DNA of 54,153 bases from a bacterium (lineage in GTDB: Bacteria; Patescibacteriota; Minisyncoccia; Sungbacterales; GWA2-42-14): the NCBI GenBank assembly GCA_030649305.1, contig JAUSFV010000005.1, forward strand, positions 1 to 54,153, given 5' to 3'. The stretch's first letter is position 1; every line of letters begins with the position of its first letter. The position numbers were made by a program, and so were the translations under genes. Below are positions 2,711 through 53,025 of this stretch, piece by piece. The notes under the pieces were generated by a model. It worked only from the letters and a program-made list of their open reading frames with translations, had not been told where the DNA came from and did not search any database.

Positions 2711-3226
2711 ATGATATATTTTGCCTCCGACCACGCAGGTTTTGAGCTCAAAGAAAAACTGAAGGCATATCTTCAGGAATTTGGACATGAAGTTAAAGAT
2801 TGCGGGGCGTTTTCGTATGATGAAGTCGATGATTATCCAGATTTTATTGCTCTTGCGGCAAAAGCGGTATCGGAAGACCCCGAACATGCGCGCGCGATTA
2901 TTCTTGGCGGCTCGGGGCAGGGTGAGGCAATGGTAGCAAATAGATTTCGCGGAGTGCGCGCTGCCGTATATTACGGACCCGCCTCCACCAAGGCTCCCGC
3001 CTACGCAGATGCTTCTGCGGGCAGGTCGGCGGGCAAGGGCGACGAAATTATCACGCTTTCCCGTGAGCATAACGATGCAAATGTATTATCGCTTGGCGCG
3101 CGATTTTTGACGGAAGAGGAAGCAAAGCGCGCGGTAAAGCTTTGGCTTGATACGGCGTTTAGCGGAGAGGAGAGGCATGTGAGGAGGATTACAAAGATTG
3201 ATGAGATAGAGAAGAGCTTTAAATAA
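2711..3226 (+). CDS. rpiB: Ribose-5-phosphate isomerase B with a 20-aa repeat-derived insertion
   Basis: [33 protein letters not shown] and RH.RRI motifs. Confidence 0.95.
2978..3037 (+). repeat. Two 30-bp palindromic elements, one nested in the other, in frame in rpiB
   Basis: Outer cccgcctccaccaaggct^tcggcgggcaag; inner cccgcctacgcagatgcttctgcgggcagg (2996-3025); 23/30 identical. Confidence 0.85.
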
Positions 3227-3367
3227 TTAACCTAATTGACCTAATTTCTAATTGACCTAAAAAATATCCAATGTCTAATGATTTAATATCAAAATACTTT
3301 TGGACATTAGGTATTTCGTCATTGGGATTTGATTAGTAATTAGAGCAATTAGAATAATTAGAATAAT
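3227..3367. repeat. Composite imperfect inverted-repeat element filling the rpiB-rpe spacer
   Basis: Left arm of ctaattgac units, right arm of aattaga units; inner arms caatgtctaa/ttggacatt. Confidence 0.65.
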
Positions 3368-4000
3368 TTGGTCAAGGTTATTCCCGCAATCAATTCGCCT
3401 ACATGGGATGAAGTCGTTAAAAAAATACGGCTTGTTGAACCGTTCACGGATTGGGTGCATATTGATGTCGCAGACGGTACGTTTACGCCGAATACCTTGT
3501 GGCATAATCCGCTAGATTTGGTTGGGTTTGAAACAAAACTTAATCTGGAAATTCATTTGATGGAACGAGAACCCGAAGATAGATTTTCTACATGGTTTTT
3601 TCCGCGAGTCATGCGAATTATCGTTCAGCAGGAAGCAACGCGTGATTTTGATTTTATCGTAAATGCCTGCCATAATAATAAAGTAGAGGCGGGGATTTCT
3701 GTGTTAACCGAAACAAATTGGAGTGTTTTGAAGCCGTTTTTGGGCAAAGCCGATTTAGTTCAGTTTTTGGCGGTAAACCCCGGATTTGCAGGGCAAAAGT
3801 TTGATGAGCATAATTACTATAAAATTAAAAAAATCCGCGCGCTTGCTCCGCACATTCCGATTGAGGTTGATGGGGGAGTGAAAGTAGGGGTTGCAAAAAA
3901 ATGCGCAAGCGCGGGAGCAACGCATCTCGTTGCCGCGTCCGCAATTTTTGATGCGGTGGATATAGCAAAAGCGATTCAGAATTTAGAGAATGATATATAA
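3368..4000 (+). CDS. rpe: Ribulose-phosphate 3-epimerase
   Basis: HIDVADG, EIHLM, VNPGFAGQKF, IEVDGG and VAASAIF motifs; TTG start. Confidence 0.93.
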   Translation: MVKVIPAINSPTWDEVVKKIRLVEPFTDWVHIDVADGTFTPNTLWHNPLDLVGFETKLNLEIHLMEREPEDRFSTWFFPRVMRIIVQQEATRDFDFIVNACHNNKVEAGISVLTETNWSVLKPFLGKADLVQFLAVNPGFAGQKFDEHNYYKIKKIRALAPHIPIEVDGGVKVGVAKKCASAGATHLVAASAIFDAVDIAKAIQNLENDI

Positions 4001-4040
4001 TAGCTGGGTTATTATGTTTGGAGCATGGAATAAAGAAATT

Positions 4041-4346
4041 ATGTCTGATGAGCAAGCGCGAAAGGCCGGTTCTTTTTTTGCCGGTCTTGTATTCGGGCTT
4101 ATATTACCCGTTGTTCTTTTTGTGGCGTTCGCCTTTTTTAGCTGGATGTATTACGGACATGGCGGGAGCCCCTCCAATATAGATGAAGTCGGAGTTATTC
4201 TCCCTGGTTTTTTGGGCATTTTTATAGAAATTGCATTATTTTTTTTGTGGAGAAGGGCCAATTCTGCTCTTGCGGTCGGTATTTTGAGTTCTGCAGGTAT
4301 TTTCTTTCTTTCTAGTCCCCTTATTGTCTTATTTCTTCTTAAATAA
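4041..4346 (+). CDS. Small multi-pass membrane protein
   Basis: About three hydrophobic helices; start uncertain (ATG 3990, 4014 or 4041). Confidence 0.7.
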   Translation: MSDEQARKAGSFFAGLVFGLILPVVLFVAFAFFSWMYYGHGGSPSNIDEVGVILPGFLGIFIEIALFFLWRRANSALAVGILSSAGIFFLSSPLIVLFLLK

Positions 4347-4348
4347 TT

Positions 4349-5209
4349 ATGTCTCATCTTCACGATGACAAGATAAAATTTCTGGAAGAAACTGCGAATA
4401 ACGTCCGCCAGACCATTATTGAATCGCTGGTTGCGGCGGGGTCGGGACACACCGCGGGGCCGTTGGGCATGGCTGATATTTTTACAGGGCTCTATTTTCA
4501 TATTTTGAAACACGACCCGAAAAATCCCGAATGGGAGGAGCGCGACCGATTAGTGCTTTCCAACGGCCATATTTGCCCCGTGCAGTACGCGACGATGGCG
4601 CACGCGGGGTATTTTCCGTTGGAAGAAATGAAAACTTTACGAAAATTTGGTACACGCTTGCAGGGGCATCCGCACCGCGGGGCGTTACCCGGTATTGAAA
4701 CAACGTCGGGGCCGCTTGGTTCAGGACTTTCACAGGCGGTTGGCATGGCAATTGGATTCAAAATGGACAAGAAGCCAAATCAGGTTTTTTGTTTGATGTC
4801 GGACGGCGAGCAGGAATGCGGGCAGACGTGGGAAGCGGCAATGCTTGCGGGAAAATTGAAGCTGGATAATCTGACCGGCATTATTGACCGCAATAACATT
4901 CAGATTGACGGCATGACCGAAGATATTATGCCATTGGAATCGCTTCGCGCGAAGTATGAGGCATTTAACTGGCACGTTTTGGAAATTAACGGCCATGATT
5001 TTCAAGAAATCACAAACGCGGTTGAAGAAGCGCGCGCGATTTACGAAAAGCCGGTTTGTATTATTGCACACACCATTCCCGGCAAAGGCATTCCCGAAAT
5101 TGAGTTTGATTATAAGTGGCACGGCATTCCGCCGAATGCGGAGCAGGCAAAAGAATTTTTGGCGAAATTGCGCACGCTTGGCGGAAAGATACAAAGTGAG
5201 CATGAATGA
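4349..5209 (+). CDS. Transketolase, N-terminal (TPP-binding) subunit
   Basis: SGH, DRLVLSNGH, LQGHP, GPLGSGLSQAVG, SDGEQECGQTWEA, IDRNNIQIDG and WHG motifs. Confidence 0.95.
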   Translation: MSHLHDDKIKFLEETANNVRQTIIESLVAAGSGHTAGPLGMADIFTGLYFHILKHDPKNPEWEERDRLVLSNGHICPVQYATMAHAGYFPLEEMKTLRKFGTRLQGHPHRGALPGIETTSGPLGSGLSQAVGMAIGFKMDKKPNQVFCLMSDGEQECGQTWEAAMLAGKLKLDNLTGIIDRNNIQIDGMTEDIMPLESLRAKYEAFNWHVLEINGHDFQEITNAVEEARAIYEKPVCIIAHTIPGKGIPEIEFDYKWHGIPPNAEQAKEFLAKLRTLGGKIQSEHE

Positions 5210-5985: not shown

Positions 5986-6055
5986 TTGGATAACCACAAT
6001 CCTCAATAAATATTTCGTTATTTGAGTTTTGGATTTTGATATTTGGGTTTTCTTT

Positions 6056-6193: not shown

Positions 6194-6202
6194 TTTAATT
6201 TT

Positions 6203-13201: not shown

Positions 13202-13245
13202 TGTGTATAAAAAATCTGGCTTTTTTACGCCAGATTTTTTATACT
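13202..13245. repeat. 44-bp hairpin, copy 1 (probable terminator plus -10-like TATACT)
   Basis: tgtgtataaaaaatctggcttttttacgccagattttttatact; identical to 17617-17660. Confidence 0.9.
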
Positions 13246-13325
13246 AAGGCGGTAGGTTTAATGTATCCTCGTTTCTTTATTCGCATATTTGCTCGTCAAA
13301 CATGCGTTGGGGGGGGGTAATATAT

Positions 13326-16300
13326 ATGAAAAAATTTATACTATCAATCATGTTGGGGGCTTTTTTGATAAGTCCGGTTTTTGCGTTCGCGCAAACAACG
13401 AATGATGCGCTTATCGCGCAGTTGCAAGCACAAATCGCGTCTTTACAGGCTCAGATCAATGTGCTTATCGCGCAGCAGGGGGGTACTCCTTCGTCTTCGG
13501 TGAGTTTTCAAAACGGCGACAGGGTTGAGGTCGCGGCATCGGTGCTTGCGGTTCGCAATGCCCCCACTACTTCCGGAGTGATCGTGGGGAAAGTATCCGT
13601 TGGAATGAAAGGCACGATACGGTGTGACGCGTCGTCATCGAATTTTTCTTGTCCGACGGCAGCAAGCGGTTATACATGGTGGTACATAGATTGGGATAAT
13701 TCGTCTTTGCCGAACGGCTGGTCCGCAGAAGGAACTTCGGAGGCGATATTTTTGACGAAGATACCGTCGGTCACAGAAGAACCGAATCCTGCGTCGTATG
13801 TATCAATTTCGGTCCCTCAAACATTGCAAGTTGGCAAGTCGCAACAAGTGTTCGCAAAATTAGTAACAACCGACGGAAAAAGTCAGGATGTTACTTTGGA
13901 GACAGAGTGGAGTTCGTCCGATTCAAAAATAGTCAGAATTGGTGGAGCGTCTTGTCCTGCAGGAACATATTGTGCGCAGGTGCTCAATGGATACTATGTG
14001 TATGGAGACGCCCCGGGGACTGCGGTTATCACTGCGACGTATCAAGGCATGACACAACAGACAAAAGTTACGGTTACGCAAATATTGGTTGAAGTTTCTC
14101 CTTCTATTACTATTCTTTCTCCAAACGGGGGCGAGACGTGGATGGTTGGCTTCCCGCAAACAATAAAATGGATAAGCAGTAATTTTCCATCTGATCGGAA
14201 GATAGATGTTGTGAGATTAAGGGATTCCTATGGTAAAGAAATCTATCTTTTATACGGGACGATTAACGACGGTTTTGAGCAAATTGTCGTGCCTTCCGTA
14301 CCCGCTGGTCCGTATACGCTTGAAATAAAAACATATTCTTCAAGCGGTGAATTGATTTTTGACGCGAGCGACGCGCCGTTTAGTATTGTTTCCTCCGGCA
14401 CTTGGCAGGAAATCGGCTCTCTTTCTGTGTCGCTTGATTCTTCAAACACCGCGTATTATATTGCCGCAGCCGGAACAAATGATAATAATCTCGCAATGCT
14501 GAAATTTCATGCGGCTAATGAAGCGATCAATTTGAAGAAAGTTGGGTTGCAGCTTTCAATGACTTCTTTTAATTCGCCGCAGGACCTGGTTAATGAGAAA
14601 GTAACTTTGTGGGATGGCGCGACGAAAGTCGGTGAGGCGATCTTCACGACGCAAACTCCTGACTTCGCGACATCAACTCTGACAGCCGACTTTATTATCC
14701 CTAAAGATGGCGACAAACTCATGACTATTCGGGGAAGCTTTGCGCCGATTGGGGTCGCGCAACCAGGAACGCCGGGGGCATGGGTGGTCGTTGATTATGA
14801 CGGATCGAATAGGCTCGGCACCCAGGGAGTTGGCATGTCATCAGGAAATACGATATATACTTCAACGGCGTATGATACGGCATCAAACGGCGTTCATGTT
14901 TTTAGATCATATCCGACGGTTGCAAAAATTGATGTGACCGGAGCTTTGATTTCGGGTCGCCGCGACCTCTTGAAGTTCAAAATTACCGCAGCTCCGCAGG
15001 GCGATGTCGGTATTGCGAAATTTGCTATCAGAACTCAAATTTCTTCCGTAACCCCCGGCTCATTGCTTGATAATATTAATCTGTACGCGTATAACGATTC
15101 TTCTTTTTCTTCCGTTGCTTCGGGTATTCAATCCGACGGCGCGCTACAGCTTACGTATACAAGCAGCGGCAGTACCGGAGGAACGTATTATATATATCCG
15201 AGAAATGCGAGTGGTCAAAATACGGCATTTCTTATTCCTGCGGGTCAGACACGTTACTTTGTGGTGCGGGGCGACGTAACCCTTGCGGGAGAAACAGTAA
15301 GCGTGGTTACTCAGCTTCTTGGTGATAGTGTCGGGAATGTTGGTCTTCGGACGGTCGCGGAGATTGATTCGACGGCATATGATAATTTTATCTGGTCGGG
15401 CAACTCTACTACCACCGCAACGGTTTTGCATCGTGATTGGTCAAGCGGTTATCTTGTGCCTGGATTGCCCGAAGGCGGTTTCAGCCAGACGTTTACGGGA
15501 GGCGGCGGTGGGCAAACCCCCTCCATCATCGTTCTTTCACCGAATGGGGGGGAGGCCTTTGTTGCCGGATCGCAGATGACGGTTCGGTGGTCTACTCAGA
15601 ATTTTCCAAATGCTCCGATTAACCTCTACCTTTTTACTAGCAACGTTACTCCTCCGACTGAGTCGAGTTATCAATGGGTTGCAAATATCGCTTTTCAGAC
15701 AGCTAATGATGGATCAGAAACGTGGACTATTCCCACAAATATTATTTCTGGGTCTCGATATTTCGTTCGCATTCTTGGGTACGATCAGACTGGATATACT
15801 TTTCCGAGCGGTTGTTTAGACGGTTGTCGTAATGACGACAGCGACGCGTCGTTTAGTATTGTGGGCACCACCTCTACACTCAAAAGCACTATTCAGGGCT
15901 ACAAAATTGATTCGGCAGGCAACGTGTTTACTAATCCCGGCGCAATCATTACCGTAAGCGGCGCGGTGAATCAGACCTATGGCACATCCGCCAATCCCTA
16001 CTTTGCTCAGCAAATTCCCGCAGGGAACTATACCGTCTCTTCATCCGTGCCAAGCGGCTACACAGTATCGTATTCGCTTTGTACAAACTGCATTGACCAC
16101 CCTGCGTCCAGTTATGTTTCGGGAAACTCGGTCAGCGTGAACGCGCCATCAGGAGGCTATGCGGATTTGTGGTGGAAGTATACGCTTCAGATATCAGGAC
16201 AAAGTGTTGCCATCTCCCGCACGCCGCAAACTTCATTTTCATCGCCCTACCGCACCGGTAGTGCCACCACTCTCAATGCTACGGTTTCTTCATCTTTATT

Positions 16301-17597
16301 CTCCACCGATCAGCAAGTAAAAGTGTATCGTAAAATCGGAACCGGTTCTTCGTTTGTGAGTGATATGACAACCACGTTTGCGTTGCGCGATAACGGTGTT
16401 TGTAACCCTTCGGCGGGTACCTGCAGTGTCGCAGGAATATGGAGCGAATTTTCTTGCCCCACCGGCGTTTCAGGCGTTCAGCAGATGACCGAATGGGTGA
16501 CGATTGGCAGTGTAACGTCAAATCAAATCCAATGGTGGTTTGAGTGCAGTAGTACGGTTGCTGCTGAACAGCCTGTTACCATTTTGCAGTCTTGGCCTAC
16601 AGCGCCAAGCGCTCAGCCCGGCCAGTCATTCTCTCTCACCTACAATTGGAGCGGAGGCCCGACAAGCAGTTCAAAACAGGTTTTTGTGCATTTTGTAAAT
16701 AGCGCGGGTCAGATTGTATTTCAGGATGACCATACGCCACCCGTGCTTACGAACCAGTGGTCCGGTACGAGAAACTATACGCGTACTATTACCGTTCCCG
16801 CGTCAACGGCTGTGGGAACCTACCGTATTATGGCAGGGCTCTATGACCTTGCTACCGGAGCGCGTCTTACTCTTACTTCTACTTCCGGTTCGGGGGTAAT
16901 TGCTGATACGCAGGATTTGCTTCGGTATCAGATTGGGACATTGACGGTTTCGAGTTCTCTGGCCGTTACTTCTTCTCTCAACGCGTCAGGAGGCTTTTCT
17001 GCAAAGCAGGGCGACAAGAGTTGGTTTTATATGTACGCAAAACCTGTCGGTTCTACACAACCCACGCTTTTGACAAATATGGAAAAATTTGACGGAACTC
17101 AAAATCGTTGGCAGGGTGGTGATGAACAGTACCTTTTACTTTGGGGCAGTGGCGGGCATCCTGGAGTGAATGCCGATGCGGTGCGCCGTTGGGTCGCGTC
17201 CGTGGCGGGAAATGTTGTTTTGAAGGGTAAGGCTTTTGATGGGCATGTCGGATGTGGTACGGATGGCGTTGTAGTCTCTATTAGAAAAGCAAGCGGTAAT
17301 GGCTCAACTCTTCTGTGGGGGCCACATACGATTCAGAAAGATAGCACAGTCGGGGTTTCCTATGATAATGTGTCGGTATTTTTGAATGCGAATGAGGGGC
17401 TTGATTTTGTTATTAGCAGGGGAGTTGATGACGGTTGTGATTCGACCGTGTTTGATCCTACTATAATATTTACTCCGCAATCGTCGGGCGCTGGTTCTCT
17501 GGATTCCGAGAAGCAATTTGCGAGTATTCTTTCATCAATACAAGCACAGCTTAACGAAATTGCGAACGCAATTAGGATGTTAATGATTCGGCGATAA
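13326..17597 (+). CDS. Large modular surface protein (signal peptide, coiled coil, SH3-like, Ig-like and SPNGGE-type modules)
   Basis: MKKFILSI..AFA signal; LIAQLQAQIASLQAQI coil; two ILSPNGGE modules; S/T/G-rich beta composition; alternative ATG 13302. Confidence 0.9.
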   Translation: MKKFILSIMLGAFLISPVFAFAQTTNDALIAQLQAQIASLQAQINVLIAQQGGTPSSSVSFQNGDRVEVAASVLAVRNAPTTSGVIVGKVSVGMKGTIRCDASSSNFSCPTAASGYTWWYIDWDNSSLPNGWSAEGTSEAIFLTKIPSVTEEPNPASYVSISVPQTLQVGKSQQVFAKLVTTDGKSQDVTLETEWSSSDSKIVRIGGASCPAGTYCAQVLNGYYVYGDAPGTAVITATYQGMTQQTKVTVTQILVEVSPSITILSPNGGETWMVGFPQTIKWISSNFPSDRKIDVVRLRDSYGKEIYLLYGTINDGFEQIVVPSVPAGPYTLEIKTYSSSGELIFDASDAPFSIVSSGTWQEIGSLSVSLDSSNTAYYIAAAGTNDNNLAMLKFHAANEAINLKKVGLQLSMTSFNSPQDLVNEKVTLWDGATKVGEAIFTTQTPDFATSTLTADFIIPKDGDKLMTIRGSFAPIGVAQPGTPGAWVVVDYDGSNRLGTQGVGMSSGNTIYTSTAYDTASNGVHVFRSYPTVAKIDVTGALISGRRDLLKFKITAAPQGDVGIAKFAIRTQISSVTPGSLLDNINLYAYNDSSFSSVASGIQSDGALQLTYTSSGSTGGTYYIYPRNASGQNTAFLIPAGQTRYFVVRGDVTLAGETVSVVTQLLGDSVGNVGLRTVAEIDSTAYDNFIWSGNSTTTATVLHRDWSSGYLVPGLPEGGFSQTFTGGGGGQTPSIIVLSPNGGEAFVAGSQMTVRWSTQNFPNAPINLYLFTSNVTPPTESSYQWVANIAFQTANDGSETWTIPTNIISGSRYFVRILGYDQTGYTFPSGCLDGCRNDDSDASFSIVGTTSTLKSTIQGYKIDSAGNVFTNPGAIITVSGAVNQTYGTSANPYFAQQIPAGNYTVSSSVPSGYTVSYSLCTNCIDHPASSYVSGNSVSVNAPSGGYADLWWKYTLQISGQSVAISRTPQTSFSSPYRTGSATTLNATVSSSLFSTDQQVKVYRKIGTGSSFVSDMTTTFALRDNGVCNPSAGTCSVAGIWSEFSCPTGVSGVQQMTEWVTIGSVTSNQIQWWFECSSTVAAEQPVTILQSWPTAPSAQPGQSFSLTYNWSGGPTSSSKQVFVHFVNSAGQIVFQDDHTPPVLTNQWSGTRNYTRTITVPASTAVGTYRIMAGLYDLATGARLTLTSTSGSGVIADTQDLLRYQIGTLTVSSSLAVTSSLNASGGFSAKQGDKSWFYMYAKPVGSTQPTLLTNMEKFDGTQNRWQGGDEQYLLLWGSGGHPGVNADAVRRWVASVAGNVVLKGKAFDGHVGCGTDGVVVSIRKASGNGSTLLWGPHTIQKDSTVGVSYDNVSVFLNANEGLDFVISRGVDDGCDSTVFDPTIIFTPQSSGAGSLDSEKQFASILSSIQAQLNEIANAIRMLMIRR

Positions 17598-17616: not shown

Positions 17617-17660
17617 TGTGTATAAAAAATCTGGCTTTTTTACGCCAGATTTTTTATACT
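17617..17660. repeat. 44-bp hairpin, copy 2
   Basis: Exact direct repeat of 13202-13245, ending 8 nt before the pfkB-family ATG. Confidence 0.9.
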
Positions 17661-17668
17661 GAAACAGT

Positions 17669-18661
17669 ATGAAACAGAGCTACGACTTCATCGCAATAGG
17701 GGATATGGTAACGGATGCATTTATACGGCTGGAATCGCCAACAGCCCATGTTGATATTGACCACGAGGTCAGGGAAATTTGCCTGCGGTTTGGCGACAAG
17801 GTGCCGTATAAGGAGGTTATTGTGGTTCCTGCCGTGGGGAATAGCGCGAATGCCGCGGTCTCTGCCGCACGTCTTGGCTTGAAGAGCGCTCTGGTATCAA
17901 ATATTGGGGATGACTATTTCGGTAAAGAATGTCTTGCGGCGTTAAAAACTGAACATGTGGGGACGGAATATATTGCAACACACAAAAACCAAAAAACGAA
18001 TTATCACTACGTATTGTGGTTTGAATCGGAGCGGACGATTCTGGTAAAACACGAAGAATATAATTATACGCTACCCGACATTGACAGTCCGAAGTGGATT
18101 TATTTATCATCTCTTGGCGAGAATTCTTTGCCGTTTCATGGGTTGGTTGAGCGGTTTCTTACAAATCACCCCGAAACAAAATTTGCGTTTCAGCCGGGCA
18201 CGTATCAGATGAAATTTGGAAAAGAAAAACTTGCGTATTTTTATAAACGGGCAGACGTATTTTTTTGTAATAAAGAAGAGTCCCAGCGCATTTTGGAAAC
18301 AAAAGAAGACGATATTAAAAAGTTGCTTAGCATGACGCGGGAGCTTGGTCCGAAAATTGCCGTGATTACTGACGGCACAAATGGGGCGTATACGTATGAC
18401 GGCAACGAAATCCTTTTTATGCGGCCGTATCCCGACCCAAAGCCGCCGTATTCGCGAACAGGTGCGGGAGATGCTTTTTCTTCCACGTTTACGGTAGCGT
18501 TGGCACTCGGCAAGAGTGTCTCGGAAGCTTTGCGGTGGGGGCCGGTTAATTCAATGTCCGTGGTACAACAAGTCGGCGCTCGCGCGGGTCTTCTTGATCG
18601 AAAAACACTTGAAGGGTATTTGGCGTCTGCTCCTGCGGATTACGAGCCAATTATGATTTGA
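17669..18661 (+). CDS. PfkB-family carbohydrate kinase
   Basis: GNSANAAV..ARLGL, IGDDYFG, VITDG.NGA and RTGAGDAF motifs. Confidence 0.93.
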   Translation: MKQSYDFIAIGDMVTDAFIRLESPTAHVDIDHEVREICLRFGDKVPYKEVIVVPAVGNSANAAVSAARLGLKSALVSNIGDDYFGKECLAALKTEHVGTEYIATHKNQKTNYHYVLWFESERTILVKHEEYNYTLPDIDSPKWIYLSSLGENSLPFHGLVERFLTNHPETKFAFQPGTYQMKFGKEKLAYFYKRADVFFCNKEESQRILETKEDDIKKLLSMTRELGPKIAVITDGTNGAYTYDGNEILFMRPYPDPKPPYSRTGAGDAFSSTFTVALALGKSVSEALRWGPVNSMSVVQQVGARAGLLDRKTLEGYLASAPADYEPIMI

Positions 18662-18693
18662 GTTTTTGTCTAATATATGACATATTGAAAGTA

Positions 18694-18942
18694 ATGAAAA
18701 AAAATCATAAGCAATTTCAGGTTATTATTGAACGCGATGAAGACGGTTATTTTGTTGCGTCCGTGCCCGCTTTGCCGGGATGTTATGCGCAAGCAAAGAC
18801 CCTTTCTTTATTGCGAGAGCGAGTAGAGGACGCTATTTCTTTGTGTCTTGAAGTGGCGCAAACGAATCGTGCATATCGAGAAAAAATAAGACGTTTTGCA
18901 TATGAGCCAACGTTTATTGGTGTTGAAATGGTTAAAATATGA
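18694..18942 (+). CDS. hicB: HicB-family antitoxin (short form)
   Basis: VIIERDEDGYFVASVPALPGCYAQAKT..DAI motif. Confidence 0.85.
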   Translation: MKKNHKQFQVIIERDEDGYFVASVPALPGCYAQAKTLSLLRERVEDAISLCLEVAQTNRAYREKIRRFAYEPTFIGVEMVKI

Positions 18943-19166
18943 GGGGACGTTTGCCGATGTTAAAAGCGCGTGATGTTGCGCGCGTTCTCACTGGACTTGG
19001 TTTTCGAGAAGTGCGCCAGAAAGGGGCGCATATTTTCTTTCAACATTCTGATGGCAGGACAACGCTTGTTTCTCGGCATGGCAGCGAAGATATCGGAAGA
19101 GGATTGTTGCGCCAAATTCTTCGTGAGATTAAAGTATCACCAGAAGATTTTTTTGATTATTTATGA
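18939..19166 (+). CDS. hicA: HicA-family toxin
   Basis: L..LGF..VRQKGAH..F.H.DGR..V..H..EDIGRGLLRQIL motif. Confidence 0.88.
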   Translation: MRGRLPMLKARDVARVLTGLGFREVRQKGAHIFFQHSDGRTTLVSRHGSEDIGRGLLRQILREIKVSPEDFFDYL

Positions 19167-35022: not shown

Positions 35023-35181
35023 CCCCGTGAGATGAGCGGTTCGCACTCTATCTCATGGGGGAGATTTCGTTGTTTTATCATACCGATTTTAAAAAAGCCC
35101 CGCAATACGCGGAAGCTTGACAAAGATAATAAAAAGGTGATAAGGTGGGGATGGTTTTTTACATTTCGCAAGGGGGTTCTT

Positions 35182-38034: not shown

Positions 38035-38136
38035 GTTTGTAGAAGCCACACGGACGCCATACACGTATACGCCACCATTACGCCAATGGCGTTTATCATA
38101 GCGTAGCAGTTAGCGTCTATATAGCTTCTACAAACA
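38034..38136. repeat. 103-bp element with 13-bp perfect terminal inverted repeats in the corA 5' UTR
   Basis: tgtttgtagaagc ... gcttctacaaaca; interior of acgcca/tggcgt units. Confidence 0.8.
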
Positions 38137-38249
38137 ATTATACGATAAATGGCTGGCAAGACGAATACTTGACAAGTTGTTTAGATGATGCTAATAGTGA
38201 AGAGCGTTCTTCGAAAATATTCAAAACTAAAGAAAAGGGGAGAAAGGAA

Positions 38250-39182: not shown

Positions 39183-39326
39183 GGCCCCATTTTGTAACTG
39201 TGGTTACGCTGTAGACAAAATCGGAGCTAGTAGTTAGGACATGTGGTTCTTTCACCCACCCAAATTTTTATGGCCTCATCGTCTAGTGGTCAGGACGTAT
39301 GGTTCTTTCACCCTCCCACCTTTTAT
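39183..39326 (+). pseudogene. Two degenerate tandem copies of the tRNA-Glu 5' half
   Basis: Unit B (39272-39307) is 29/36 identical to the tRNA 5' half; unit A is more decayed and interrupted by a 30-bp hairpin insert (39191-39220). Confidence 0.75.
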
Positions 39327-39398
39327 GCCCCTGTCGTCTAGTGGTTAGGACGCATGGTTCTCATCCATGCAACCGGAGTTCGATTCTCCGCAGGGGCG
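39327..39398 (+). tRNA. tRNA-Glu (CTC)
   Basis: Acceptor gcccctg/caggggc; anticodon arm catgg-ttCTCat-ccatg; T arm cggag-ttcgatt-ctccg; CCA not encoded. Confidence 0.95.
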
Positions 39399-39439
39399 TA
39401 GGAAAAGGTGGGCGGGCAAGTCTATAAAACCGGGGCACG

Positions 39440-39566: not shown

Positions 39567-40928
39567 ATGTCTCTCAAATCATTTCTTAAAAAATTATTTC
39601 CCGAATCGTGGTTTGGGTTCTATCACTGGTGCATGGCGTGGTGCGCCGCTTTTTATTTTGGATTCCCCTCACGGCGTATGACGGTCGTCGGGGTTACCGG
39701 CACCAAGGGCAAAACCTCAACCGCGGATTTTATCTGGTCTGTACTGACTGCGGGGGGATATAAAACGGGCTTGGTGAGCACGGCGCATTTCAGAATCGGA
39801 GAAAAAGAATTTTTAAATCCGTATCATATGACGATGCCGGGGCGTTTTAAGCTTCAGAGATTTTTGCGAACAATGCAGAAGGCCGGATGCACGCATTGCG
39901 TGATTGAAACAACGTCGGAAGGTATCAAGCAATTCCGGCACAAGGGGATTGCGTATGACGTTGCTGTCTTTACCAACCTATCACCTGAACATTTGCAGTC
40001 GCATGGAGGAAGTTTTGAGCAATACAAAAAAGAAAAAGGGAAATTATTCGCATTACTTGCATCATCTCCGCAAAAAACCATCTGCGGTGCCGCAACTCCG
40101 ATTCCAAAAACAACATTCCAACATTCTGCAGAATGTTGGAATGTTCCGAAAGCGATTATCGTAAATTACGACGACCAAGCGCGAGATTATTTTTTACATT
40201 TTCCCGCGGATGTTAAAAAAACATTCGGTTTGGGAGACGGCGCGAATATTCGTGCGGAACAGATTCGCGATACGGACGATGGCGTTCTGTTTAGTGTGGG
40301 CGGCAGAGAATACGCCTTGCATATTCTTGGACGTCTCAATGCGCAAAACGCGCTTCCTGCGCTGGCACTCGGTGAAATTTTTGGTATTTCGTACGAAGCT
40401 ATGCAAAAAGGGCTTGCGGGGCTTCATGTGATTCCGGGACGAATGGAAGAAATCAAAGAGGGGCAGAATTTTCGCGTGTTTGTGGATTACGCGCATGAGG
40501 GAAAAAGCATGACGGCGTTGTTGGAAGCCGCGCGGGGTATTGTTGCGAAAACCGGAGGCCGCGTTATTGTGCTTCTTGGCGCGGAGGGCGGAGGGCGCGA
40601 TACGGCAAAGCGCCCTACCATGGGTCGGCTTGCGGGTGAGCGCGCCGATTATGTGGTGGTTAGTAATGTTGACCCATATGAAGATGATCCGAAAGAAATT
40701 TGTGAGGATATCGCGCGCGCCGCCGAAACAGCCGGAAAACGACGAGGAGAGAATCTTTTTGTGATTGAAGACCGGCGTGAAGGAATTCGAAAGGTGCTAT
40801 CGCTTGCGCGCTCAGGAGATGCGGTGTTTATCACAGGTAAGGGCGCCGAACAATCAATGGTGATTAAGGGTAAAAACATTCCGTGGGATGATAGGGTTGT
40901 GGTGCGAGAGGAACTTGCTCGTTTTTAG
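39567..40928 (+). CDS. murE: UDP-N-acetylmuramyl-tripeptide synthetase (MurE-type Mur ligase)
   Basis: GVTGTKGKTST, IETTSEG, FTNLSPEHL..H, PGRME, VDYAHE, GGGRD..KR, EDP and GKGAE motifs. Confidence 0.9.
   Translation: MSLKSFLKKLFPESWFGFYHWCMAWCAAFYFGFPSRRMTVVGVTGTKGKTSTADFIWSVLTAGGYKTGLVSTAHFRIGEKEFLNPYHMTMPGRFKLQRFLRTMQKAGCTHCVIETTSEGIKQFRHKGIAYDVAVFTNLSPEHLQSHGGSFEQYKKEKGKLFALLASSPQKTICGAATPIPKTTFQHSAECWNVPKAIIVNYDDQARDYFLHFPADVKKTFGLGDGANIRAEQIRDTDDGVLFSVGGREYALHILGRLNAQNALPALALGEIFGISYEAMQKGLAGLHVIPGRMEEIKEGQNFRVFVDYAHEGKSMTALLEAARGIVAKTGGRVIVLLGAEGGGRDTAKRPTMGRLAGERADYVVVSNVDPYEDDPKEICEDIARAAETAGKRRGENLFVIEDRREGIRKVLSLARSGDAVFITGKGAEQSMVIKGKNIPWDDRVVVREELARF
40112..40145. repeat. 34-bp perfect palindrome in frame in murE
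   Basis: aacattccaacattctg|cagaatgttggaatgtt; encodes TFQHSAECWNV. Confidence 0.95.
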
Positions 40929-40977
40929 GCTAATTTTTGTTATTTTTCTATAGAGGCTTAGCCTTTATAGAAAATGC

Positions 40978-41878: not shown

Positions 41879-41910
41879 GAAAAATACCCCGATTGGGGTA
41901 TTTCATTTTT

Positions 41911-42935: not shown

Positions 42936-42978
42936 ATTATGTCAATACTCTCTTCCGTTTGTGGCGATTCGAAAGCGC
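42936..42978 (+). pseudogene. Decayed duplicate of the secA 5' end
   Basis: 40/43 identical to 43798-43840; reads MSILSSVCGDSKA versus SecA MSILSSIFGDSNA. Confidence 0.85.
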
Positions 42979-43746: not shown

Positions 43747-43800
43747 GTCGTCTCCTCGGGTTGGCAATGAGCTTCTTCTTGTATAGCATTTGATATTATT

Positions 43801-46479
43801 ATGTCAATACTCTCTTCCATTTTTGGCGATTCGAACGCGCGGGTAGCGAAGGCGTTTGAGCCGTTGGTTTTGCGCATTAACTCGTTTGCGGAGGAGTACG
43901 AGGCGCTTTCGGATGCCGAGCTTCGCGGAAAAACCGGTGAATTTAAAAAGCGTCTCACTAATGGCGAGACGCTTGACGATATTCTGCCCGAAGCATTCGC
44001 GGCAGTACGCGAAGCGGCACGGCGGACTTTGAAACTCCGCCATTTTGACGTGCAGCTCATCGGAGGTATTGTCTTGCATCAGGGAAAAATCGCCGAGATG
44101 AAAACAGGTGAGGGGAAAACGCTTGTTGCAACCCTGCCGTTATATTTGAATTCGCTTACGGGAAAAGGGTGCCACTTGGTGACCCCGAACGATTATTTGT
44201 CGCGCGTTGGCGGCGGATGGATGGGTCCCGTGTACACGGCGCTTGGTGTTTCGGTTGGCGTAATCGCGCACGAACTTTCCGGAATCTATGACCCATCGTT
44301 TCAGGACCCGCATTCGCATGGTGATACGCGATTGGAACATTGGCGCCCCGTGAGCAGGCGTGAAGCGTATGGGGCAGATATCACGTACGGTACCAACAAC
44401 GAATTCGGGTTTGATTATCTTCGCGGCAATCTCGCGTATTTTTTTAAAGATGTAACACAGCGAGAGCATCACTTTGCCATTGTGGATGAAGTTGACGCTA
44501 TTTTAATTGATGAAGCGCGTACTCCGTTGATTATTTCAGCTCCCGATACCGAGTCATCGGAATATTTCGGAACGTTCGCAAAAGTTGTTCCGCACTTAGA
44601 AGAAAATACGCATTACAATGTGGACGCGAAATTCAAAGCGGTCACGATTACAGAGGAGGGGATTGAAAAAGTTGAAAAATTGCTTGGCGTAAAAGATTTG
44701 TATGCCGAAAAAGGATTTCGCTATGTGCGCTATTTGGAGCAGGCCTTGCGGGCGCAAGCGCTTTTTCTGCTTGACCGCGATTATGTGGTCAAAAACGGCG
44801 AAGTAATTATCGTGGATGAGTTTACGGGGCGTCTTATGCCGGGCAGGCGATGGTCGGAAGGATTGCATCAGGCGATTGAAGCAAAAGAGGGGGTTCCTGT
44901 ACAGAAAGAATCGCGCACACTTGCCACGATTACGTTTCAGAATTATTTCCGCATGTATGAAAAATTGGCGGGGATGACGGGAACCGCCGAGACTAGTGCT
45001 GAGGAATTTTCAAGTGTATATCGCCTGGACGTGGTAACAATTCCGACGCATCGGCCCATGGTACGTCTTGATTCGGGAGACTTGATTTTTCGTACGGAGA
45101 AGGGAAAATTCATGGCTTTGGTTCGTGAGATCAAAGAGCGGCACGAAAAGGGACAACCCGTTCTTATCGGTACGGTTTCTATTGAAAAAAATGAGCGCTT
45201 ATCGGCGCTTCTTCAGCGCGAGGGCGTTTCGCACGAACTTTTAAATGCAAAAAATCATGAGCGTGAGGCATTGGTGATTGCGCAGGCGGGGCGCAAGGGT
45301 GTGGTGACTGTGGCAACAAACATGGCGGGACGCGGGGTTGATATTATTTTAGGCGGGACTCCCTTAGACCCCGCGGAGGCGGAAGAGGTGCGGGGGCTTG
45401 GGGGTCTGCACGTTATCGGTACTGAACGCCATGAGGCGCGCCGGATTGATAATCAGCTCCGCGGTCGCGCCGGCAGGCAGGGCGACCCGGGGTCATCGCA
45501 ATTTTTTGTATCGCTTGAGGACGACCTTATGAAAATTTTCGGGTCTGACAGGGTTAAGCGGATGATGGAATCATTCGGCATTCCCGAGGACCAATCTATT
45601 GAAAATAATATCGTTTCAAAAGCGCTTGAATCAGCACAAGCAAAAATTGAAGGGTTTCATTTTGACGCACGAAAACACGTATTGGAGTATGACAACGTAA
45701 TGAACAAACAGCGCGAGGCGGTCTATAGGATGCGGAAAGAAATACTTGTTGCATCGGGGATTCAGGACTCCGATTTACAAACACCGCGGGAGCGGATAAC
45801 GGAGATGATTCGGGAGGAAATTGCGCGGATGGTTGATGTTCATACCGCCGGGTATCGCTCCGATTGGAACACGGAAGAAATTTTTGAGGAGATGAAAGCA
45901 ATTGCGGGTGTTGCGAATGAGACGCACGCGCGCCTTGAAGCAATCCGTGAGGAGGGAGGAGACGAAGAAACAGCGCGAGAAGATATGAAAGAATATCTTT
46001 TGGCAACGTTGCGGGCGTCGTATGATATAAAAGTTACAGCAGTAGGGGAGGAGGGTATGAAAAATTTGGAGAAGGTAACGCTTTTACAGACGATTGATAT
46101 GCTCTGGATGGATCATTTGGATACGATGGCGCATTTACGGGATTCCGTGCGTCTTCGCGCCTATGGCCAGCGCGACCCGTTAGTGGAATATAAAAACGAA
46201 GGGGTGAAGTTGTTCCGCGAATTGCAGGTCGCAGTTCGCGCGCAAGTCGTGAATACGATATTTAAAGTAGGGCTTACGCAGGAGCAAACAAATAACCACC
46301 AACATCACCATCATGCCCCGAATTTGATTTTTAAGTCGTCAGAAAACCAGCCGTCAGTTTTTGGTAACAACAAGCAGGAAGCTGGGAGCAGGAAGCCGGA
46401 AGCTGCCAGTGGGCCTGGCCGTAACGACCCCTGTCCATGCGGGTCAGGGAAGAAATATAAAAAATGCCACGGTAAATAA
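43801..46479 (+). CDS. secA: Preprotein translocase subunit SecA
   Basis: EMKTGEGKT, VDEVDAILIDEARTPLIIS, ATNMAGRGVDI, QLRGRAGRQGDPG; SEC-C motif GRNDPCPCGSGKKYKKCHG. Confidence 0.98.
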   Translation: MSILSSIFGDSNARVAKAFEPLVLRINSFAEEYEALSDAELRGKTGEFKKRLTNGETLDDILPEAFAAVREAARRTLKLRHFDVQLIGGIVLHQGKIAEMKTGEGKTLVATLPLYLNSLTGKGCHLVTPNDYLSRVGGGWMGPVYTALGVSVGVIAHELSGIYDPSFQDPHSHGDTRLEHWRPVSRREAYGADITYGTNNEFGFDYLRGNLAYFFKDVTQREHHFAIVDEVDAILIDEARTPLIISAPDTESSEYFGTFAKVVPHLEENTHYNVDAKFKAVTITEEGIEKVEKLLGVKDLYAEKGFRYVRYLEQALRAQALFLLDRDYVVKNGEVIIVDEFTGRLMPGRRWSEGLHQAIEAKEGVPVQKESRTLATITFQNYFRMYEKLAGMTGTAETSAEEFSSVYRLDVVTIPTHRPMVRLDSGDLIFRTEKGKFMALVREIKERHEKGQPVLIGTVSIEKNERLSALLQREGVSHELLNAKNHEREALVIAQAGRKGVVTVATNMAGRGVDIILGGTPLDPAEAEEVRGLGGLHVIGTERHEARRIDNQLRGRAGRQGDPGSSQFFVSLEDDLMKIFGSDRVKRMMESFGIPEDQSIENNIVSKALESAQAKIEGFHFDARKHVLEYDNVMNKQREAVYRMRKEILVASGIQDSDLQTPRERITEMIREEIARMVDVHTAGYRSDWNTEEIFEEMKAIAGVANETHARLEAIREEGGDEETAREDMKEYLLATLRASYDIKVTAVGEEGMKNLEKVTLLQTIDMLWMDHLDTMAHLRDSVRLRAYGQRDPLVEYKNEGVKLFRELQVAVRAQVVNTIFKVGLTQEQTNNHQHHHHAPNLIFKSSENQPSVFGNNKQEAGSRKPEAASGPGRNDPCPCGSGKKYKKCHGK
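46372..46405 (+). repeat. 7-bp tandem repeat (RAGCNGG x5) in the SecA C-terminal linker
   Basis: aagcagg aagctgg gagcagg aagccgg aagctg. Confidence 0.7.
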
Positions 46480-46961: not shown

Positions 46962-47534
46962 ATGAAAATTATATTAGGGTCACAATCGCAATCGCGAAAA
47001 AAAATCCTTGAAGACATGGGGTATGAGGTTACCATGATGCCGTCACACATTGATGAGAAACAAATCCGGTTTGAGGACCCGAAGAAATTGACACTTGCCT
47101 TAGCGCACGCGAAAGCGGCGGCACTTCTTCCTCGTATTATGGAGCCTGCCATTTTGATAACTGCCGATCAGGTTGTGGTGTGGCGCGGCATCATTCGGGA
47201 AAAACCGGAAAACACGGAGGAGGCAAAATCATTTCTCCGGAGTTTCCACGAATCCCCCCAAGAAACCGTCGGGGGCGTTGTAGTTACCAACACAAAAACC
47301 CGCAAGCAGTTTGATGGAGTTGATGTCGCAAAAATTTGGTTTCGCCGGATTCCCGATGAGGTCATTGTGCGCTATATTGAAAGCGGAGATCCTTTTTTAC
47401 ACGCGGGCGGTTTTGACCACCAACACCCGATCATTAATGAATTTGTGGAGCGCATTGAGGGTGAAAGTGAAAGCATTATGGGCTTGCCCGTAGCACTTAC
47501 AAAACGGCTTATACAAGAAGCAACCGAAGTATAG
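46962..47534 (+). CDS. maf: Maf-family nucleotide pyrophosphatase
   Basis: IILGSQS..RK.IL, IDEK.IR, AKA, ITADQVV, EKP and IMGLP motifs. Confidence 0.93.
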   Translation: MKIILGSQSQSRKKILEDMGYEVTMMPSHIDEKQIRFEDPKKLTLALAHAKAAALLPRIMEPAILITADQVVVWRGIIREKPENTEEAKSFLRSFHESPQETVGGVVVTNTKTRKQFDGVDVAKIWFRRIPDEVIVRYIESGDPFLHAGGFDHQHPIINEFVERIEGESESIMGLPVALTKRLIQEATEV

Positions 47535-47544
47535 ATTCCCAATA

Positions 47545-47580
47545 CAACATTCTAACATTCTGCAGAATGTTCGAATGTTG
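47545..47580. repeat. 36-bp near-perfect palindrome, third copy of the fba/murE element (intergenic)
   Basis: caacattctaacattctg|cagaatgttcgaatgttg; one mismatch. Confidence 0.92.
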
Positions 47581-47590
47581 CGAAAAGTGT

Positions 47591-48136
47591 ATGATGAATC
47601 CGTTTTCTGAAAATCTCATATTTTTTGATACCGAATTTTCGGGTCTTAACCCGTATACAGGCGAGATTCTTTCTATTGGTATGGTGAAAATGAATGGAGA
47701 GGAATTATATTGCGAACTTGAGTACGAGGGCGAAGTGAGCGACTGGGTGAAAACAAAACTTTTGCCGGAATTAACAGCTCCGAAAGTGAGCCGCAAAGAA
47801 GGGGCGGAACGCATTTTGGCGTTTGCCGGAGACACAAAGCCCTATCTTATCGCGTATGTCATGGAGTATGACACAGCGTTTTTATATAAATTGCTTGGCG
47901 TAAACAATCAAAAAGGAAACCGCGATTTGCCGTATCATTGGATTGTGCTTGATTTCGCTTCAATGCTCTTTGCGCTTGGCAAAAACCCCACAGATTTTCC
48001 GAGTCAGGATAAGGTAGCTCTTGCAAAGGAACTCGGCATTGATATCGAAAAATATCGCACGCATCACGCGCTTGATGACGCAAAACTTTTGCGGGAGGTA
48101 TATTTAAAACTTTTTCATAATAACATGATACAATAG
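47591..48136 (+). CDS. DEDDh 3'-5' exonuclease/exoribonuclease
   Basis: FFDTEF, YDTAF and HHALDDA motifs; start set at ATG 47591. Confidence 0.88.
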   Translation: MMNPFSENLIFFDTEFSGLNPYTGEILSIGMVKMNGEELYCELEYEGEVSDWVKTKLLPELTAPKVSRKEGAERILAFAGDTKPYLIAYVMEYDTAFLYKLLGVNNQKGNRDLPYHWIVLDFASMLFALGKNPTDFPSQDKVALAKELGIDIEKYRTHHALDDAKLLREVYLKLFHNNMIQ

Positions 48137-51876: not shown

Positions 51877-51901
51877 AAAATTATCAAAAGTTCTGATTCT
51901 T

Positions 51902-51932
51902 AAAAAGCCCATCCTTCGCGGATGGGCTTTTT
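51902..51932. terminator. Intrinsic terminator
   Basis: aaaaagcccatcc-ttcgc-ggatgggcttttt. Confidence 0.8.
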
Positions 51933-51957
51933 GCGTCTGAAACGATATAATGAGTAT

Positions 51958-52890
51958 ATGATGTCCCTTGTTCAAAACTGGTTTCTTATCACGATTGCGG
52001 TGTATGTCCTGCATACCGTCAATGTCGTGATTGATAAATTTTTGCTCGGCAGAAGAATTGACCGTGCGTCGGTGTACGCGTTTTTAAGCGGTATCTTGAG
52101 CGTGTTTGTCCTTGTACTTTTGCCGTATGCCTCCTCGGCGTTTCCTTCAGGCGTCGTTGTAGGATATTCCTTGCTTGCGGGTTTTGCATTTGTGTTTGCC
52201 CTTTATTTTTATTCATACGCCATTCAGCATGACGATGCGTCGCGCGTAGCACCTCTCATTGGCGGTATTGCTCCTCTTTTTGTTGTGTGGTTTTCGTGGC
52301 TTCTTTGGAGCGAGAAGCTGAATGGAAATGATCTTTCGGGATTTCTCCTGCTTGCGGGAGGCATGATCGTGCTCGCACTTTCCGGTTTTTTGAAAGATTC
52401 GTATACGCTCAAAGAGTTTGGCGCGACTCTTGTGTCGGCATTTCTCTTTGCGGTTTCATATTTTTTTGCAAAGGCAACGTTTAATGAGGTCTTGTTTATC
52501 GATGGTGTTATCTGGATCCGAATGGGTGCATTTTTCGCATCCCTCCTATTTCTTGCGTCTCCCGCGGTCAGAAATTTTTTTCGTAGTGAACAAAAAAACC
52601 TGCTTTGGGGGAGTACGGGGGCGTTACTTCTTGGAAACAAGCTTTTGGGCGCCCTTGCTCTCCTTTTTTTGAATTACGCCATTGCTTTAGCACCGCATGT
52701 GGGTATTGTGAATGCTTTGCAGGGCATTGAATTTGTTTTAGTGTTTTGTGCCGCAACTGCTCTTTCGCACTGGTATCCCGCGATTCTTGAAGAAAAGCTG
52801 ACAGTGCCGGTTTTGGCGCTCAAAACGATTGCAATTCTTCTCGTAGGTATCGGCGTATTTTTTATCGCGCGTCCTCTCATTCATATATGA
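51958..52890 (+). CDS. EamA/DMT-family transporter
   Basis: About ten TMs in two repeats; V.DKF.L, SRVAPL motifs. Confidence 0.85.
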   Translation: MMSLVQNWFLITIAVYVLHTVNVVIDKFLLGRRIDRASVYAFLSGILSVFVLVLLPYASSAFPSGVVVGYSLLAGFAFVFALYFYSYAIQHDDASRVAPLIGGIAPLFVVWFSWLLWSEKLNGNDLSGFLLLAGGMIVLALSGFLKDSYTLKEFGATLVSAFLFAVSYFFAKATFNEVLFIDGVIWIRMGAFFASLLFLASPAVRNFFRSEQKNLLWGSTGALLLGNKLLGALALLFLNYAIALAPHVGIVNALQGIEFVLVFCAATALSHWYPAILEEKLTVPVLALKTIAILLVGIGVFFIARPLIHI

Positions 52891-52893
52891 TAA

Positions 52894-53025
52894 ACCCCGT
52901 TAGAAGTCCTCGGCAGAAAAATTAATCGGAAATTTTTCTGCTCGACAATACTGGGGGATAATCAATAATATAAAGTCTGTCTCAAAGTAGTTTGAACACT
53001 ATATAAGACAGACTTCTAACGGGGT
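52894..53025. mobile_element. 132-bp MITE-like element with 15-bp perfect terminal inverted repeats
   Basis: accccgttagaagtc ... gacttctaacggggt; internal hairpin gcagaaaaatt/aatttttctgc. Confidence 0.7.

Follow-up and report, generated by a model that had tools for sequence, protein, structure and literature searches.

What are the short palindromes that are scattered over the genes and spacers of a contig from the candidate phyla radiation (CPR), and do they belong together? The contig in question, JAUSFV010000005.1, is of groundwater metagenome origin and was analysed over its whole length of 54,153 nt, which we refer to as the window; the named relatives that match its Fba protein best are Candidatus Sungbacteria and Parcubacteria, both of the CPR, and an exact look-up of this protein in the contig index gave no match. 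The original prediction, which was made from the sequence alone, had seen in it one window-wide family of palindromic elements that enter core proteins and supply gene boundaries. A single family is not borne out, since the hairpins of the window are of at least four unrelated kinds. One of these, a 34-nt palindrome composed of ACATTC half-sites, recurs in several bacterial phyla and repeatedly lies next to a small winged helix-turn-helix (wHTH) gene. On balance, we consider it probable that this palindrome is the operator of an ArsR-type wHTH autorepressor, that copies of the operator have been dispersed without target duplication, that a class of spacer-filling hairpins turns over separately, and that the remaining elements are duplications and ordinary terminators.

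The perfect palindrome AACATTCYAACATTCTGCAGAATGTTRGAATGTT occurs three times in the window, at 19531-19562, 40112-40145 and 47545-47580, where 0.04 occurrences would be expected by chance. Its 34-nt layout, A-ACATTC-Y-AACATTC-TGCA-GAATGTT-R-GAATGT-T, amounts to four ACATTC half-sites, and stop codons are absent from it in three frames on both strands, except for one frame of the T variant. Copy 1, a 32-nt perfect palindrome, lies in frame in fba and encodes KKHSNILQNVGMS. Copy 2 is contained in a 16-aa in-frame insert of murE (40095-40145, the left edge being approximate) and reads TTFQHSAECWNV, such that the two genic copies are translated in different frames (HSNILQNVG in Fba). In-frame palindromic inserts in these two proteins had been predicted, and the comparison with homologs confirms them: the Fba insert adds approximately 7 aa relative to homologs in the PDB and to a relative with an empty site (L119), and the MurE insert is missing from all 60 of 60 aligned representatives. 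In an AlphaFold2 model of Fba (mean pLDDT 89.6), the insert falls at the C-terminus of helix 107-128 and into the loop that precedes strand 134-138, with pLDDT values below 50 at residues 128-130. By this model, the insert would belong to an alpha-beta loop on the side of the barrel that faces away from the catalytic face.

Copy 3, which carries one mismatched pair and has approximately 12 nt of left flank in common with copy 2, is situated in the spacer between maf and an exonuclease gene. It had also been counted as an in-frame insert, in a hypothetical open reading frame (ORF) called at 47567, but a position in front of the true start is more likely. The ORF as called begins at an ATG inside the palindrome, its Pfam RNase_T match sets in only at residue 18, and the palindrome is followed by a TATGAT box and then by ATGATG, at a distance of 9-10 nt. 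For these reasons the start at 47567 is probably mis-called, and the true start of the exonuclease is likely to be at about 47591, with the palindrome in front of the gene. No presence/absence polymorphism of the three copies was found in Logan contigs from two groundwater runs, the contigs of which end inside the palindromes; a strain in the second run has all three copies. In runs X1 and X2, the summed k-mer depth rises approximately 10- to 40-fold above the contig baseline in the bins over the three palindromes (19344-20000, 40002-40302 and 47527-47827), which shows that the same groundwater communities contain many other copies.

How far does this palindrome extend beyond the window? An exact scan with its central 18-mer, using one genome per GTDB species, yielded at least 118 loci. 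The hosts are Saccharibacteria, many lineages of Parcubacteria (Harrison-, Lipton-, Giovannoni-, Taylor-, Yanofsky-, Colwell- and Brennerbacteria, and Paceibacterota), Roizman- and Doudnabacteria, and metagenome-assembled genomes of Kiritimatiellia, Verrucomicrobia and Lentisphaerae; a few of the matches look like chance. Across 132 copies, pairing between the arms is 89-100% at positions 1-16, falls to 72% at position 17 and reaches background by about position 20, and it is this drop past position 17 that defines the extent of 34 nt. Position 10 covaries, being C:G in 79 and T:A in 46 of the 132 copies. The 5′ end of the element is A-ACATTC, and its flanks are rich in A to the left and in T to the right. 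Long ORFs span approximately 25% of the copies. When viral contigs were scanned with the same 18-mer, a single match emerged, so that the element is not generally phage-borne. Neither the sequence nor its peptides nor palindromic repeats of CPR bacteria are described in the literature that was searched, the coverage of which excludes subscription journals, and the family thus apparently is undescribed.

The distribution of the copies is patchy. There are three in the 54-kb window, none in 918 kb from 80 DnaB-anchored relatives, and six within 3.2 kb of locus L206 (Candidatus Sungbacteria, JACPBG010000005.1, 1839-4991). In L206, the six palindromes occupy the spacers that flank five genes on the same strand, namely an HTH_24-like ORF, a 50-aa ORF, an NYN-domain gene, a 320-aa ORF and a wHTH gene, after which tspO follows. 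The layout resembles that of a cassette array. Integron attC sites were considered for this array and set aside in an informal comparison, because the core GTTRRRY is unlike GTTGGAA and because the palindromes are perfect.

The wHTH gene of L206 is representative of a wider association. In approximately 25 of the 118 palindrome-anchored loci, among the matches listed, the palindrome directly adjoins a gene for an 89-aa protein of the sequence M.KT.KQLERYFKGAANHRRIAIL...FKTISQHTRSLVQAGLLNKKYRGRQV.HSLSPYGK.FLKFMKTF, which matches Pfam HTH_5 and the ArsR/SmtB subfamily of NCBIfam. In 19 of 23 loci, the 110 nt in front of the gene contain a palindrome; in the examples that were read, a -10-like box follows this upstream copy after a few to about 20 nt, e.g. 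GGAATGTTGTATAAT. A second palindrome overlaps the stop codon in 17 of the 23 loci (..AAA ACA TTC TAA..), and the last residues of the protein as well as its stop are hence encoded by the palindrome. The promoter arrangement recalls copy 3 of the window, which resembles it in architecture. Furthermore, divergent paralogs of the wHTH gene are bracketed by other palindromes, TATTCCAGTGTTTTGCAAAACACTGGAATA in L028, TTATTCTCTAATTCGAGCGAATTAGAGAAGAA in L029 and one of 46 nt in L014.

Among 141 ORFs that flank copies of the palindrome, only HTH_5 recurs clearly, with 17 members; TspO, EamA and NUDIX were each encountered three times and ZnuA twice. The original prediction could not have included this regulator, since the contig lacks its gene. 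The wHTH family itself comprises at least 2068 sequence clusters, which are annotated only as generic wHTH, MarR or ArsR regulators and which include Sungbacteria as well as two paralogs in one Giovannonibacteria genome. No metal-site motifs were evident in the protein on limited inspection. In L003, L088, L097 and L206, a TspO/MBR gene comes after the wHTH gene, and in L097 the tspO ORF itself holds an in-frame ACATTC palindrome (KQHSNILQNVGML).

The conserved home of the palindrome is thus the 89-aa ArsR/SmtB-type wHTH gene, with one copy in front of the -10 box and another across the stop codon. These observations suggest a mechanism in which the wHTH protein is an autorepressor. It would bind the palindrome, probably as dimers on inverted half-sites, and operator copies would have been dispersed through the genome in a REP-like manner (after the repetitive extragenic palindromes of other bacteria) by a route that leaves no target duplication. 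Copies within genes would persist where they add a net multiple of three nucleotides to a tolerant surface loop, as in Fba and MurE, because the palindrome is open in every frame. Copy 3 may be a portable operator/promoter piece for the exonuclease gene. The remaining elements of the window are a leader and a hairpin that each occur in two copies, and ordinary terminators. The anatomy of the palindrome, the distribution of its copies, its association with the wHTH gene, the occupied and empty sites and the lack of target duplications and of a RAYT are observed, while the binding of the protein to the palindrome, its autoregulation and any mode of spread are inferred from sequence.

A closer look at the Fba loop is instructive with respect to gain and loss. 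Among 120 Fba homologs that are 69-83% identical, the stretch bounded by EYA.. and ..(I/L)S(V/I)EGELGYLRGES is hypervariable. It is empty in 43 of them (e.g. ARAKNPEIN), contains the ACATTC element in the HSNILQNVG frame in 20 and in the NIPTF..ML.C frame in 4, and reads KSDF..EVRLP in 8, while the remaining inserts often are peptide-palindromic (KFSIFNFQF, ESRIKNKESR, TSYKLQATS, QPTTYNLQP). At the DNA level, the site is empty in L119 (83% identity), and L120 and L121 (74%) have the same element in the same place with two arm mismatches, in L120 also in the same frame as in the window. L204 carries a degenerate ACATTC copy in another frame, L122 a different 34-nt palindrome (GGAAGTCGGACTTCCCGCGGGAAGTCCGACTTCC), and L205 (83%) four tandem NNAC(R)AC heptamers; some copies are decaying (HTNNLKYVG). 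The insert types are scattered over a neighbour-joining Fba tree that was built without the insert and that is weakly resolved at 70-83% identity. Such scatter would argue for repeated gains and losses at this loop, as far as the resolution of the tree allows.

The spacer-filling hairpins are a separate matter. Elements that fill the spacers in front of rpe, pyrG, recR and the glycoside hydrolase had been predicted, and in all four cases the spacer is indeed wholly taken up by inverted-repeat structure. The rpiB-rpe spacer (3227-3367, + strand; -34.8 kcal/mol, z -5.2) consists of (YCTAATTN)x4 ... (NAATTAGR)x4 and runs into the TTG start of rpe. Between rplI and pyrG (30285-30356, + strand; z -4.26), (CACGAAT)x3 is followed by (ATTYGTG)x4, and the dnaB-recR spacer (33537-33618, - strand; z -3.39) is made of CACRAAT/ATTYGTG units like those before pyrG. 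These three spacers share an architecture of 2-4 tandem units of 6-9 nt that are followed by their inverse units. The fourth, between eamA and the glycoside hydrolase gene (52891-53023, + strand; -45.4 kcal/mol, z -7.56), is a composite inverted repeat, in which a 14-bp outer stem (CCCCGTTAGAAGTC...) surrounds a terminator-like hairpin and a second hairpin. The mechanical call of the pyrG ORF starts at GTG 30324, inside the hairpin, and the true start is likely the ATG at 30357.

At orthologous junctions, the architecture recurs with other sequences. L120 has an analogous element of TAGCTT/AAGCTA units between rpiB and rpe. For the dnaB-recR junction, 28 of 56 distinct relatives have spacers of less than 30 nt, with some of the genes overlapping, and the 28 longer spacers mostly form significant hairpins with units of their own (TTAGTT, AGCTTGT, CAACAAG, CTAAA, CAATTTT and CGAAT-type). 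CACGAAT arrays are missing from 839 kb of palindrome-anchored loci, and a related CAYGAAT array is present in L174. What unites the spacers before rpe, pyrG and recR is thus their structure, while the sequence is particular to each lineage and the elements are acquired and lost at orthologous sites. They may originate by insertion or by growth in place, through slippage and hairpin-templated copying, in genomes that would tolerate long palindromes. A remodelling of 5′ untranslated regions by these elements, which had been proposed, is plausible. The related expectation that the elements come and go rather than being ancient structure holds as well, in that an 83%-identical relative has no insert at the Fba site and half of the relatives lack the dnaB-recR spacer.

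In L174, the CAYGAAT tandem-unit hairpin of the dnaB-recR spacer (approximately 3890-4320) encloses an ORF of about 115 aa. By eye, we take this ORF to resemble the family of four-helix-bundle proteins known as 23S rRNA intervening-sequence proteins. As a general partner of such hairpins the ORF was dismissed, since tblastn found no other copy in the loci or in the window.

Could the palindromes of the window be explained differently? One alternative would be elements of the REP/REPIN or IS200/IS605 kind that are moved in trans by a Y1 HUH transposase (RAYT, the REP-associated tyrosine transposase, or TnpA) whose gene lies elsewhere in the genome. In favour of this, the palindromes are short and multi-copy, the missing target-site duplication is what single-strand transposition by HUH enzymes predicts, and a gene bracketed by two copies is the very arrangement that first revealed RAYTs. 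Nonetheless, the bracketed gene encodes an ArsR-type wHTH protein instead of a Y1 transposase, and neither the recurrent families among the 141 flanking ORFs nor the scanned ORFs of the window contain Y1_Tnp, whole genomes being outside this search. No fixed tetranucleotide such as GTAG or CGTC tags the edge of the palindrome in 132 copies, and the element is a perfect palindrome without a loop and without an asymmetric guide sequence. For want of a tag and an HUH gene, the REP/RAYT analogy drawn in the original prediction fails its defining tests, and we regard this explanation as very unlikely; the accompanying statement that the window shows no RAYT gene was correct. An origin from miniature inverted-repeat transposable elements derived from DDE transposons is not supported, either. 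They have terminal inverted repeats with a target-site duplication, and no such duplication was found: direct repeats of 2-5 nt at five candidate boundaries are in at most weak excess over permuted flanks and without a consistent pattern. A purely local and repeated origin, by replication slippage and intrastrand template switching without transfer between sites, would account for the common tandem-unit architecture with lineage-specific units at the same junction and for the pure tandem heptamers in the Fba loop of the closest relatives. Such an origin could not yield one and the same 34-nt sequence at three sites of the window and across hundreds of genomes, and as a general explanation it is highly improbable; plausibly, it fits only the tandem-unit spacers, where it already forms part of the favoured mechanism.

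Two further explanations do without mobility altogether. If each copy were a functional ArsR-type operator under selection, with the genic copies acting as roadblocks or internal promoters, one would expect the operator-like position at the regulator's own promoter (19 of 23 loci), the placement of copy 3 before the -10-like box of the exonuclease gene, the copies beside znuA, ZIP and tspO genes and the strong conservation across phyla. One would not expect a quarter of the copies inside unrelated ORFs, an Fba loop that harbors many unrelated palindromes and tandem repeats by lineage and is empty or decaying in others, six copies in 3.2 kb of L206 with one per gap between small genes, or their lack in relatives with the same core genes. 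We therefore deem a genuine regulon unlikely. Alternatively, the elements may have been kept for a role in the RNA: between cistrons, they could serve as terminators, as sites of RNase III processing or to stabilise 3′ ends, with their sequence being incidental. The strong predicted folds of the spacer elements, the pairing of the right-arm ATTTGTG with CACGAAT through G-U on the sense strand of the pyrG element, a modest G-U excess on sense strands, the A and T tracts beside some ACATTC copies and the L174 hairpin, with its ORF assigned only by eye to the intervening-sequence family, all point in this direction. Yet a T-tract (at least 6 T in the 8 nt from the last base of the element) accompanies only 17 of 121 ACATTC copies, half of the relatives do without the dnaB-recR spacer, and cleavage or termination of transcription at copies inside genes would do harm. 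Since exact conservation across phyla and linkage to the wHTH gene are left unexplained as well, we hold an RNA-level role to be quite unlikely.

Several findings nevertheless weigh against the operator of a wHTH autorepressor as the source of the dispersed copies. A relative of only 74% identity has an orthologous and almost intact counterpart of the Fba copy, which could have been kept by selection on the DNA rather than being a recent insertion; the neighbour-joining tree behind the counts of gains and losses is poorly resolved. Mismatches in the hairpins show a sense-strand G-U excess (103 versus 68) that is weak and confounded by strand composition, and that hints at some RNA-level constraint. 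The argument for an operator draws on position and covariation, and binding is deduced only from these. Moreover, the wHTH gene was absent from the window when searched for with tblastn and a custom hidden Markov model, so that the partner is missing from the contig of this organism, and a few copies adjoin znuA or ZIP transporter genes and tspO, as would befit a genuine regulon. Finally, the wHTH protein cannot by itself explain dispersal, since it has 89 aa and no catalytic domain.

A bolder version of the operator hypothesis, which we put forward tentatively as a possibility, is that the wHTH gene and its operator of four half-sites form a self-propagating pair that spreads horizontally between CPR bacteria and the Planctomycetes-Verrucomicrobia-Chlamydiae (PVC) group and seeds orphan operators on its way. 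If this were the case, it would be a new kind of dispersed element, the cargo of which is a transcription-factor binding site, and orphan operators at gene boundaries and, in frame, in core enzymes would rewire regulation in genomes that are poor in regulators.

With respect to the window as a whole, the impression of many hairpins was correct. In a scan that allowed at most one mismatch and a loop of at most 8 nt, with 20 dinucleotide shuffles as a control, 22 hairpins with arms of at least 11 nt were found, as compared to a mean of 3.95 in the shuffles, and 9 had arms of 14 nt or more, a length that no shuffle reached (13 nt at most). The 918 kb from 80 related genomes contain 176 palindromes with arms of at least 13 nt, a density similar to that of the window, and the enrichment is hence a property of the clade and not of this contig alone. 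Of the palindrome types that had been counted, at least ten in all, several proved to be ordinary hairpins of terminator-like form (31983-32014, 40944-40974, 41882-41903 and 51902-51932). The singleton hairpins fit the definition of an intrinsic terminator, a stem with a T-tract at the 3′ end of a gene, and the one at 31983-32014, between the convergent genes pyrG and rpmA, is a bidirectional terminator-like palindrome with A-tract, stem and T-tract.

Other elements of the window are duplications. The predicted elements before rpmA and dnaB proved to be the two copies of one 65-nt repeat; its presence at both starts stood, and its hairpin is modest. The rpmA copy (32292-32350, - strand; z -3.0) comprises a hairpin of 10-12 bp (TTTCAGCGAA..TTCGCTGAAA), a TAAATT box and the start codon, and it is 97% identical over 65 nt to 34963-35027, where the copy upstream of dnaB is located (34969-35027, - strand; z -2.25). 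The leader thus supplies a small hairpin, a TAAATT box and an ATGGCA start to both genes, and 29 relatives showed no such leader in front of dnaB. Likewise, a 40-nt hairpin (GTATAAAAAATCTGGC..GCCAGATTTTTTATAC), which emerged from the repeat scan, brackets the gene of a 1431-aa surface protein, with one copy before the gene (13202-13254) and the other between it and pfkB (17617-17669). The copy on the pfkB side is orthologous in the 83%-identical L205.

The two remaining claims concerned rpiB and corA. By homolog comparison, RpiB does have a 20-aa in-frame insert (2978-3037, + strand), which is GC-rich, with CCCGCC and GCGGGC units around a small hairpin, and which is missing from RpiB structures in the PDB and from L120 and L004. 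While the addition is real, its palindromic nature is weak, as it folds no better than shuffles (z -0.64). The GC-rich motif TCGGCGGGCAAG at its end (3026-3037) recurs in L062, L120, L175 and L184, often beside CCCGCC, which hints at a second dispersed repeat family in CPR bacteria. The element claimed for the spacer upstream of corA (38065-38168, - strand) is not significant, with z -0.77 and 42 of 200 shuffles folding as well.

The contig begins with the 3′ end of the 23S rRNA gene and the 5S rRNA gene at its 5′ end, and in Rfam 15 at the gathering threshold the window matches only 23S rRNA, 5S rRNA and tRNA, with no match to the hairpin elements. Its core genes include rpiB, rpe, the transketolase halves, pfkB, fba, rplI, pyrG, rpmA, recR, dnaB and cysS, and it further carries corA, tRNA-Glu, murE, speE/speD, secA, maf, a DEDD exonuclease gene, the genes of two giant surface proteins, an EamA transporter gene and the glycoside hydrolase gene. 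A Shine-Dalgarno-like motif precedes 3 of 32 genes, so that the description of a mostly Shine-Dalgarno-less genome applies to the window. No transposase, recombinase or HUH protein was found among the scanned ORFs.

Several other features of the window were observed along the way. The giant proteins, of secreted type, have 1431 aa (13302-17597) and 2538 aa (21849-29465); they have several repeats of 70-300 nt in common (71-94% identity), and the larger one displays internal periodic repeats of 1584 and 1968 nt. Immediately upstream of fba, at 18658-19162, a HicB-like antitoxin ORF is followed by a hicA-type-looking remnant, a region homologous to L205 1611-1843. The intact tRNA-Glu(CTC) gene (39326-39399) is directly preceded by two degenerate units in tandem (39227-39325), each about 55 nt long and similar to the 5′ part of tRNA-Glu. 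In addition, the start region of secA including its ATG has a 43-nt copy of 93% identity in the spacer upstream of speE, 862 nt away (42936-42978 versus 43798-43840).

How do these elements compare to known systems? The REP/BIME elements and the REPIN-RAYT systems of Enterobacteria and Pseudomonas resemble the ACATTC family in being palindromes of 20-40 nt with many dispersed copies, in lacking a target duplication and in including a single-copy gene bracketed by repeats. They differ in that this gene encodes an HUH transposase, whereas here it encodes the 89-aa ArsR-type wHTH protein, and in carrying a GTAG/CGTC tag, where the ACATTC element is a perfect loopless palindrome of four direct or inverted half-sites that is common to several phyla. 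REP copies, furthermore, are essentially extragenic and near-identical, while the present family, although multi-copy, has about a quarter of its copies in ORFs. The comparison to Rickettsia palindromic elements is apt at the descriptive level, given the in-frame palindromes in Fba and MurE and the predicted position of the Fba insert in a surface loop of low model confidence. Those elements, too, are inserted in frame at tolerated surface positions of conserved proteins and also have intergenic copies. They form families of approximately 100-150 bp that are confined to Rickettsia and are not known to have an associated protein gene. The ACATTC element, on the other hand, has 34 nt of unrelated sequence with open frames, is linked to a wHTH gene and resides in CPR and PVC hosts.

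With the operators of ArsR/SmtB regulators, the palindrome shares an inverted repeat over the regulator's own promoter, beside a small dimeric wHTH protein. Known operators of this type number one or few per genome and are not known to lie inside coding sequence, in contrast to the stop-codon copy and the many orphans found here. The tandem-unit spacers would be similar to the cyanobacterial STRR (short tandemly repeated repetitive) heptamer arrays and SDRs (small dispersed repeats), with their tandem 7-nt units and small spacer-filling hairpin repeats. The palindromic repeats of organelles, i.e., of Volvox and of fungal and sponge mitochondria, appear to be similarly nested and spacer-filling, and sometimes to lengthen proteins. 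Lineage-specific turnover would be common to the cyanobacterial and organelle repeats and ours, while hosts and sequences differ. TIGR-Tas arrays contain spacers of approximately 9-10 nt between tiny conserved motifs; by this layout they were set apart from the present elements, which are conserved units with gaps of 1-4 nt.

CPR bacteria have tiny genomes with few regulators and poorly understood expression signals, and almost all of them are uncultured. In this context, a palindrome that recurs across phyla and is tied to one wHTH protein provides a concrete and testable pair of regulator and site. It also explains a practical nuisance, in that short-read assemblies break at the palindromes and gene callers choose spurious starts, as for the ORFs at 47567 and 30324. 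The inserts in Fba and MurE offer a bacterial counterpart to the case of Rickettsia, where selfish DNA lengthens essential proteins, and the Fba loop, having been hit repeatedly across hundreds of lineages, amounts to a natural experiment. If a protein guides the dispersal of the palindrome, binding sites would have a new means of spreading in bacteria.

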